64,000 nt of DNA from Hyphomicrobiales bacterium (GTDB lineage Bacteria; Pseudomonadota; Alphaproteobacteria; Rhizobiales; UBA4765), in NCBI GenBank assembly GCA_965247525.1, contig OZ252015.1, forward strand, positions 1,759,485 through 1,823,484, written 5' to 3'. The position numbers and the translations under genes were made by a program. Within the stretch, counting starts at the first letter, position 1, and the number at the start of each line of letters is the position of its first letter. The notes under the pieces were generated by a model. It had not been told where the DNA came from. It was given only the letters and a program-made list of their open reading frames with translations, and ran no database searches. Positions 30,225-31,271 of the stretch are shown here, piece after piece.

Positions 30225-31271
30225 TTACATTTTCACAAGGCCGGTCTGGATCAGCACGCGTGCGACATCGTTGAATGTCGGCATCGGAATATAATTGCCC
30301 GGCGCGCCGCCCTCGAGAAGTTTCAAAACCAGTTCCGGCTCTTCGACAATCGGCATTTTGCGCAAAGCGGCCTCTTTGATATATTCGGCGGCTTGGTCAA
30401 AGGTGCGGGCGGCGATGATTGGCGCCGCGGTCTCCCCTTGCACGAAGACAAGCGCGACGGCGCGGTCGCCGAATGCCAGAACGATATTGGCTTTCGACAG
30501 GCCAACATAGCCCGATGTTTGTGCAATCTGCTCGGCCATCTGTCGGCGGGCAGAGCGGATTTCCGGCGAGCCTGAATCTTCTTTTTGTTCGCGCTTCATT
30601 TCAGACACGCTCATTTTATTGTCGCGCTTGAACAGGATGCGCGACAATGGAATGTCGATCATCGCTACGATGACAAGAACGATGAGGCTGGCGCCGATAC
30701 TGTAGCCATACAGCCAGAGCATGACGGTGGTAACGCAGCCTTCGCCGCAGCTGGGGCTCCACAGCAGATCATTGATATACCAGCGAAACAAAAAATAATT
30801 GATCGAGCAGATAACGATGATGACTGTAAAACCCTTGATCAACTCGAACAGGTTTTTGACCGAAAACAGCTGTTTGACGCCCTGAACAGGGTTGAGCTTG
30901 CCGATGTTGAAGGTCACGGCCTTGAAGTTGAGCGGCAGGCCTTTCGCATCGAGGATGATGGCCAGAATATGCGCGCCCATAATAATGGAGACGGCGGGAA
31001 TCATAATGTTTTGCAGAAGCTGCAACTGTGCGGTAAATGCCCGTCCCATTTCAGCAACGAAACCTTGCGGCATAGTCACGTCAAAGGTGAGGAATGAGGC
31101 TTGCAGATCCGTCAGGATCTCGCGCCACGAAAAGATGAAATAGCCAAGCGCTGCAATCAGCGCCAATGTCTTTTCAAAATCCTGGCTGCGGGGGACCTGT
31201 CCGTCCTGCCTGAGTTTTGCAAGCCTGCGGTCGCTTGGTGCTAAATTCTTTTCCTCGCCATCACCTGCCAT
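30225..31271 (-). CDS. sctU: T3SS switch protein SctU (RhcU; FlhB family), lacking the NPTH site
   Basis: It has 4 TM segments, the linker KMSVSEMKREQKEDSGSPEIRSARRQ and a C-terminal domain. AFGD (nt 30465-30476) sits where NPTH aligns. Confidence 0.85.
   Translation of the reverse strand: MAGDGEEKNLAPSDRRLAKLRQDGQVPRSQDFEKTLALIAALGYFIFSWREILTDLQASFLTFDVTMPQGFVAEMGRAFTAQLQLLQNIMIPAVSIIMGAHILAIILDAKGLPLNFKAVTFNIGKLNPVQGVKQLFSVKNLFELIKGFTVIIVICSINYFLFRWYINDLLWSPSCGEGCVTTVMLWLYGYSIGASLIVLVIVAMIDIPLSRILFKRDNKMSVSEMKREQKEDSGSPEIRSARRQMAEQIAQTSGYVGLSKANIVLAFGDRAVALVFVQGETAAPIIAARTFDQAAEYIKEAALRKMPIVEEPELVLKLLEGGAPGNYIPMPTFNDVARVLIQTGLVKM

Follow-up and report, generated by a model that had tools for sequence, protein, structure and literature searches.

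What does it mean for a T3SS (type III secretion system) if its export-apparatus 'switch' protein lacks the site at which such proteins cleave themselves? The question is raised by SctU of a Hyphomicrobiales bacterium, encoded in a 64 000-nt stretch of DNA (assembly GCA_965247525.1, contig OZ252015.1, positions 1,759,485 to 1,823,484), here called the window, to which all coordinates refer. In FlhB/SctU proteins, autocleavage proceeds by attack of an asparagine side chain on its own peptide bond, with cyclization and a cut between the N and P of an N-P-T-H loop. Reviews call this NPTH autocleavage of SctU conserved (e.g. PMC6140923). A sequence-only reading of the window had claimed that the motif is missing from its SctU, and this claim is upheld by HMMER and MAFFT alignments and by an AlphaFold model. 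Judged from sequence comparison, the absence is normal for the rhizobial-type (Rhc) family of T3SSs, all checked members of which have it in common, and no peculiarity of this genome. The protein is most probably a typical RhcU that is constitutively uncleaved, belonging to a family from which the cleavage loop and SctP, the partner that binds it, would have disappeared jointly.

The cleavage site of SctU

The window SctU belongs to the FlhB/SctU family over its full length, Pfam PF01312 (Bac_export_2) spanning residues 6–340 (E = 2e-63). A motif scan for NP[TE]H across all 348 residues returned no occurrence, in agreement with the earlier statement that neither NPTH nor NPEH is found anywhere in the protein. 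The sequence was aligned with the solved FlhB and SpaS chains using HMMER, and with a set that included YscU, Spa40, two HrcU and many FlhB proteins using MAFFT. Both methods placed L265-A266-F267-G268-D269-R270 opposite V-(T/A)-N-P-T-H-(I/Y/F), minus one residue. F267 is paired with the catalytic Asn, G268 with Pro and D269 with Thr, the His position is deleted, and the strands flanking the site are conserved. The sequence-only reading had proposed a family alignment that takes in Rhc, Ysc and flagellar members; once made, it showed NPTH to be absent and revealed the one-residue deletion. It also corrected the register, since the four residues A266-F267-G268-D269 (GCA TTC GGC GAC, 30465..30476, minus strand) had been set against N-P-T-H one residue out of step: A266 precedes the Asn position and it is F267 that faces Asn.

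MEROPS defines peptidase family N6 by an N-P-T-H loop with the catalytic Asn between strands b1 and b2, and the window SctU has no such loop. The same family is recorded as containing non-peptidase homologues in which the Asn is replaced (PMC3207474).

An AlphaFold2 model of SctU, built on the clade alignment, gave a C-domain with a predicted local distance difference test score (pLDDT) of ∼90. In this model b1 comprises residues 263–267, followed by a two-residue turn (G268-D269) and b2 (270–275), beyond which come the strands and helices customary for the domain. Foldseek matched the model to the cytoplasmic domains of YscU, EscU, CT091 and FlhB with TM-scores of 0.68–0.84, and the top-ranked PDB matches were single-chain, uncleaved mutants of YscU, EscU and CT091.

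Absence of NPTH across the Rhc family

NPTH is missing from all 18 of the closest database homologues of the window SctU, the most distant of which is 27% identical; the FlhB proteins that come after them keep it. When 1.84 billion representatives were searched with a clade profile, which gave 13,020 family matches, ∼140 of the 150 best, counted as clusters at 50% identity, were without the motif. Altogether the NPTH-less Rhc-type family comprises at least ∼160 clusters at 50% identity, mostly from uncultured environmental bacteria.

Annotated reference SctU proteins, taken from plasmids, divide in the same way. NPTH is absent from RhcU of Sinorhizobium fredii NGR234 (pNGR234a, WP_010875099.1; LVYRGTAV-LIGLRYVRGE), Bradyrhizobium guangxiense and Bosea vestrisii, and from SctU of S. 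meliloti GR4, S. americanum, an HrpK-bearing Klebsiella plasmid and a Paracoccus plasmid. It is present in YscU, Spa40, Pantoea HrcU, Ralstonia HrcU, Mycetohabitans SctU and the SctU of the second T3SS of Rhizobium etli IE4803, and unrelated FlhB proteins (P0020–P0036) retain NP(T/E)H. The one-residue deletion of the window SctU is also seen in RhcU of NGR234, B. guangxiense and B. vestrisii. The sequence-only reading had treated Rhc proteins as NPTH-bearing comparators, a framing that does not survive: canonical RhcU, the Rhc-II-like SctU and the ∼140 clusters are without the motif.

The composition of the site separates the two groups sharply. In the four columns, the 29 relatives that bear NPTH show N and P at 100% each and T and H at 96% each. 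Among 164 NPTH-less relatives, the first three columns read G47/D12/S12/F7, G35/P14/D10 and D32/G25/E7 (percentages), and 80% have no residue at the fourth. An Asn stands at the nucleophile position in 4/164 of these proteins, Asn-Pro in 2/164, and the turn contains Gly in 142/164; the flanking strands (A-x-h-h-h and A-V-G/A-L-R-Y) are retained. The two NPTH-less-clade proteins in which Asn-Pro survives read NPGV (P0060) and NPGS (P0068); they could be relics, separate losses or an artefact of the trees.

Our search of open-access text found no paper stating that RhcU, or any natural SctU, lacks NPTH, and an earlier mention elsewhere is possible. NPTH-less sequences have been public for decades, and the window holds a divergent environmental member of a known family.

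Phylogenetic placement of SctU

All SctU trees were distance based, using neighbour joining (NJ), and the bootstrap trees were built after removing the columns of the site. In an NJ tree of 197 sequences, 166 of the 168 NPTH-less proteins form one clade that contains all Rhc references and the window SctU, with the NPTH-bearing families outside. The window SctU groups with the NGR234, S. meliloti, Klebsiella and Paracoccus SctU proteins, to the exclusion of any NPTH-bearing member, in 96–97 of 100 bootstrap trees, and the smallest clade uniting it with NGR234 RhcU is free of NPTH sequences in 97 of 100. Of the named references, RhcU of R. esperanzae (R. etli-type) comes nearest to the window lineage in the NJ tree, and the best plasmid matches to the window SctU are all rhizobial RhcU proteins.

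Two NPTH-less sequences, P0157 and P0180, with GPD and GNG turns, fall beside a Ysc-like NPTH group in the NJ trees; they, too, may be relics, separate losses or noise.

Type of the secretion locus

The genes of the cluster are listed in Table 1. Their order, J-(nolU position)-L-N-O-Q-R-S-T-U with a separate unit of y4yQ-type sctD and sctV, is that of NGR234 and Bosea. The NolW-like protein carries the N-terminal part of a secretin: its residues 218–351 match positions 3–136 of the 463-position SctC profile, there is no Secretin Pfam domain, and its gene gives a tblastn match to the Bosea gene in the nolW position. The operon is syntenic with that of loci L001/L022, from a 2.1-Mb metagenome-assembled genome (MAG) of an uncultured alphaproteobacterium, with 63–89% identity for sctT, sctR, sctQ, sctN and sctV. 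Since the Rhc gene order, a Y4YQ_C-type SctD and a NolW-like half-secretin are found together and yet there is no tts box, the locus is a non-flagellar, Rhc-type T3SS in the broad sense and not one of subgroup I.

Between the sctO-like gene and sctQ there is an overlap of 22 nt, which leaves no slot for sctP. The same is true of the five other annotated NPTH-less loci (L022, L023, L024, L025 and L028), where sctO abuts sctQ. The sole type III secretion substrate specificity switch (T3S4)/Flg_hook domain in the window belongs to flagellar FliK (21407–23098).

When open reading frames (ORFs) of the window were compared with the NGR234 and Bosea loci by tblastn, only core genes matched, and nolB/nopB, nopX and nopP were not recognized. 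No homologue of hrpK or hrpW was recognized in the window.

Table 1. Genes of the T3SS cluster and the site within SctU, with the evidence for each assignment
Feature	Coordinates	Strand	Basis
Y4yQ-type sctD	26880..27884	+	Pfam Y4YQ_C 4.6e-12; NCBIfam SctD TIGR02500 1.5e-17
sctV, convergent with sctU	27894..30044	+	Pfam FHIPEP 4.4e-181
sctU/rhcU, export-apparatus 'switch' protein without NPTH	30225..31271	-	348 aa; PF01312, TIGR01404, PDB FlhB/SpaS/YscU/EscU matches, AlphaFold2, Foldseek
Short F267-G268-D269 turn in place of N-P-T-H, one residue shorter	30465..30473	-	Alignments and AlphaFold2
sctT	31271..32080	-	Pfam Bac_export_1 7.6e-31; stop overlaps sctU start by 1 nt
sctS	32080..32349	-	Pfam Bac_export_3 9e-15
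sctR	32366..33022	-	Pfam FliP 1.1e-60
sctQ	33038..34156	-	Pfam FliMN_C 2e-21
sctO-like, y4yJ position	34135..34638	-	Position; no Pfam match; L022 orthologue (71% identity) has a faint FliJ match
sctN ATPase	34638..35981	-	Pfam ATP-synt_ab 9.6e-83 and T3SS_ATPase_C
sctL	36113..36895	-	Pfam T3SS_SCTL 1.8e-08
nolU-position gene, possible sctK	36899..37585	-	No family match; 51% identity to L001 gene in same position; NGR234 nolU slot
sctJ	37598..38395	-	Pfam YscJ_FliF 2.4e-26
NolW/RhcC1-like, N-terminal secretin part only, 367 aa	43188..44291	+	NCBIfam SctC TIGR02516 1e-11

Weighing the explanations

The motif AFGDR recurs unchanged in P0037, from another genome that falls in the 90% cluster of the window SctU, and in six homologues at 69–75% identity from other assemblies. 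This recurrence in independent assemblies rules out a sequencing error as the source of the missing NPTH. Decay of the T3SS, or at least of sctU, in which the lost motif would mark a non-functional switch protein in a reduced genome, is very improbable indeed. A small genome contig (∼2.04 Mb), a window in which no secretin core, needle or translocon genes were recognized and an SctU score under the curated NCBIfam cut-off speak for it, but each of the twelve core genes is an intact ORF that scores strongly against its family, the operon keeps its synteny with L001/L022 and the same turn architecture is found across ∼160 divergent clusters as well as in NGR234, whose system is regarded as functional in the literature. 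Moreover, the CC subdomain (residues 263–348) is the best conserved part of SctU, being 79–80% identical to close relatives, against 64–67% for the transmembrane (TM) domain. With a conserved C-domain and an intact operon, the pseudogene reading was rejected, and the earlier description of the protein as otherwise intact proved sound, with TM helices, linker and C-domain all present.

It could also be supposed that RhcU-type proteins are still processed at or near the turn, by other chemistry or by another protease, and so reach the cleaved-state conformation without NPTH. SpaS engineered for cutting by an external protease works like the wild type in Salmonella (PMC4620466), so that the route to cleavage seems uncritical, and Asn-Pro is kept in the two clade members noted above. 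The turn, however, is highly variable and usually three residues long, with no conserved nucleophile or protease site, and the tight two-residue hairpin of the model would hardly be reachable by a protease; we consider such processing very unlikely. Slightly less implausible, though still very unlikely, is a loss specific to this lineage and independent of the rhizobial Rhc systems, which would make the locus a new kind of T3SS rather than an Rhc member. The window SctU is just 29–31% identical to Rhc-I and Rhc-II-like SctU, its nearest relatives are all uncultured, the window has no tts box and SctN identity does not discriminate between the families. Against this stand the bootstrap trees, 96–97% of which put the window SctU with the Rhc references and with no NPTH sequence, the one-residue deletion common to Rhc and window SctU, and the gene order, Y4YQ_C domain, NolW-like half-secretin and missing sctP, all of which are likewise shared with Rhc.

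Several observations weigh against the reading preferred here, that of a typical, uncleaved RhcU in a family that lost the loop together with SctP. Both NCBIfam scores of the window SctU lie below the equivalog cut-offs: TIGR01404 (SctU) gives 223 bits against a cut-off of 358, and TIGR00328 (flhB) gives 177 bits. SctN is ∼52% identical to Rhc and ∼52% to Ysc/Asc proteins, and so does not separate the families. No Secretin domain, as expected of the RhcC2 core, was found among the window ORFs scanned; RhcC2 is often encoded away from the locus. The tts box has no exact match in the window, and its one-mismatch matches lie inside genes, with none at promoter positions. In the trees without the site columns, all NPTH-less sequences other than P0157 and P0180 split off exactly, but their monophyly had a bootstrap of 43%, and of 1% when both were included. 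With such values a strict single origin of the NPTH-less sequences was abandoned, and the claim is limited to the position of the window SctU inside the NPTH-less Rhc clade. A gene resembling sctP could be present at another place in the genome, and co-loss is argued from a correlation that does not demonstrate a cause. Finally, no cleavage experiment on any RhcU was found in the literature, and non-cleavage is inferred from the missing Asn-Pro.

A probably cleavage-free switch protein

In the Rhc family, the NPTH loop between b1 and b2 appears to have been replaced by a variable Gly/Asp-rich turn of three, sometimes four, residues, which is F-G-D here. SctU is predicted to be a single uncleaved chain in which b1 and b2 form an ordinary hairpin, because Phe-Gly stands in place of Asn-Pro and the hairpin is tight. 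In other systems the PTH loop serves as the binding surface for SctP/T3S4: HpaC, the T3S4 protein of Xanthomonas, binds HrcU at its NPTH motif, and the HrcU N264A exchange abolishes cleavage (PMC3040844). Rhc loci, that of the window among them, have no sctP between sctO and sctQ. The hrpP/yscP (SctP) gene has been reported as missing from all Rhc subgroups, and the published tables show neither SctW nor SctP for Rhc (Gazi et al. 2012, PMC3574062). Most likely, the loop and SctP, its partner, were lost together at the base of the family, after which the turn would have been free to drift.

The remainder of SctU, with its membrane domain on SctRST and its folded C-domain, would keep its essential role at the export gate, and the ordering of substrates in Rhc machines would be independent of a cleaved SctU. 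In Salmonella, cleavage as such is not the switching signal but serves to set a conformation (PMC4620466). Rhc-I systems are described as functional and possess genes for the surface-appendage proteins NopA, NopB and NopC, plus NopX and effectors (PMC3973906; NGR234 annotation). The sequence-only reading had suggested either a different switching logic or a single substrate class. A different logic is plausible and fits the absent SctP; a single class is not implied, because Rhc-I systems with an NPTH-less RhcU are described as functional and carry appendage, NopX and effector genes. A bolder proposition, for which we see the balance as even, is that the whole Rhc family is a natural cleavage-free machine that discarded the NPTH loop, the SctP ruler/T3S4 and the SctW gatekeeper together, so that the order of pilus, translocon and effectors would owe nothing to an SctU–SctP switch.

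For the window itself the missing NPTH is of little consequence, and the result is more useful at the level of the family. When an Rhc-type SctU lacks the motif, neither a pseudogene nor an error of assembly should be read into it, nor an invention peculiar to one lineage, and caution is warranted where annotation pipelines name NPTH-less proteins 'export apparatus switch protein'. A large family without NPTH and without SctP, which includes genetically tractable rhizobia, lends itself as a natural system to the question of what purpose cleavage serves.

Surroundings of the cluster

The gap between the convergent sctV and sctU stops is filled by a tandem repeat (30057–30219) in which a 33-bp unit (TGCCCGAGCTTCAGCGAATGGCAGCATTCAAAA) is present in 4.9 copies with 98% identity; it occurs nowhere else in the window, and locus L022 of the related MAG has no such repeat in the corresponding position. 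Directly upstream of sctD-sctV lies a LOV/PAS histidine kinase of the HWE/HisKA_2 type with a single-domain receiver (25173–26725, minus strand), a candidate regulator of the T3SS.

Several ORFs near the cluster have no family match. Two adjacent ones on the minus strand (40757–41407 and 41392–42033), of 216 and 213 aa, are identical over their last ∼140 residues and lie in a stretch of 39% GC beside the T3SS cluster; they are possible duplicated effector genes. Just downstream of the NolW-like gene, a 1158-aa Q/A/T-rich protein (44683–48159, plus strand; no Pfam or NCBIfam match) that repeats GTQQTTAAANPYAALFGL several times and contains a stretch rich in proline is a candidate secreted substrate. 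ORFs of 75 aa (S/T/A-rich) and 113 aa (42344–42973, minus strand) and one of 409 aa that is divergent from sctJ (39190–40419, plus strand) and weakly similar to the equivalently placed L001 gene are candidates for pilus/needle or translocon proteins.

Flagellar and cell-cycle genes (2609–23098) stand beside the injectisome-type cluster and include chpT-like and ctrA-like genes, fliI, flhA, a flbD-type sigma-54 activator, fliN, fliH, fliG, fliF, flgD and fliK. The flagellar flhB is not in the window: tblastn with SctU and three FlhB queries found one family member only. On the other side, a divergent pair (52868–54273) encodes a LuxI-type autoinducer synthase and a LuxR-type autoinducer-binding protein.

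Comparison with known systems

The closest parallel to the site is RhcU of NGR234 (Y4yO), Bradyrhizobium and Bosea, which has no NPTH and the same one-residue-shorter turn (NGR234 LVYRGTAV-LIGLRY, window IVLAFGDR-AVALVF). The NGR234 Rhc-I system further resembles the window locus in operon order, in a y4yQ-type sctD before sctV, in a nolW-type half-secretin and in having no sctP. It differs in that the window SctU is only 29–31% identical and the window has neither a tts box nor recognized nolB/nopB, nopX or nopP. Whereas the NGR234 system lies on the symbiosis plasmid, the window cluster is apparently chromosomal, in an uncultured alphaproteobacterium of ∼2 Mb, and adjoins flagellar genes.

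The locus also resembles the Rhc-II and Rhc-III systems (pNGR234b, Pseudomonas syringae T3SS-2, R. etli plasmids; PMC3574062), among which the Rhc-II-like SctU of S. meliloti GR4, S. americanum and Klebsiella have no NPTH. Subgroups II and III have no ttsI, no tts box and no nop genes (PMC3973906), and the window matches them in having no tts box and no recognized nop genes. RhcU of R. esperanzae and R. phaseoli is annotated with 265 aa, ending before b1, whereas the window SctU keeps the full conserved C-domain. The R. etli-type plasmid protein of 265 aa (L036:586-1383, R. esperanzae pRspN561b; also H69, H79, H81 and H96) has no CC subdomain, and the gene that follows it on pRspN561b, on the opposite strand, encodes a pectate lyase. 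Among enterobacteria, the Klebsiella aerogenes IncF plasmid NZ_CP099261.1 (L028) carries a complete Rhc-II-like T3SS with an HrpK-domain protein, a secretin and an SctU without NPTH; Klebsiella pneumoniae plasmids (H5 and H6) were also among the SctU search matches, and the enterobacterial plasmids with Rhc-II-like T3SSs are conjugative.

With YscU, EscU, SpaS/Spa40, HrcU and FlhB the window SctU shares four TM helices, a linker and a C-domain made of a four-strand sheet with helices. Those proteins (MEROPS N6) have an invariant N-P-T-H cut at N|P, whereas the window SctU has F-G-D, with one residue fewer. In this respect it is like the non-cleaving mutants YscU N263A and N263D, EscU N262A and P263A, the SpaS catalytic mutant and HrcU N264A, in which the chain is continuous through b1-b2. 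The SpaS mutant has an altered secretion hierarchy (PMC4620466), and HrcU N264A loses binding of HpaC and HrpB2, with reduced secretion of late substrates (PMC3040844). Unlike the window SctU, however, these mutants keep a four-residue loop; the natural Rhc form has a Gly-rich turn that is shorter, and it occurs in working systems, at least among the Rhc-I rhizobia.

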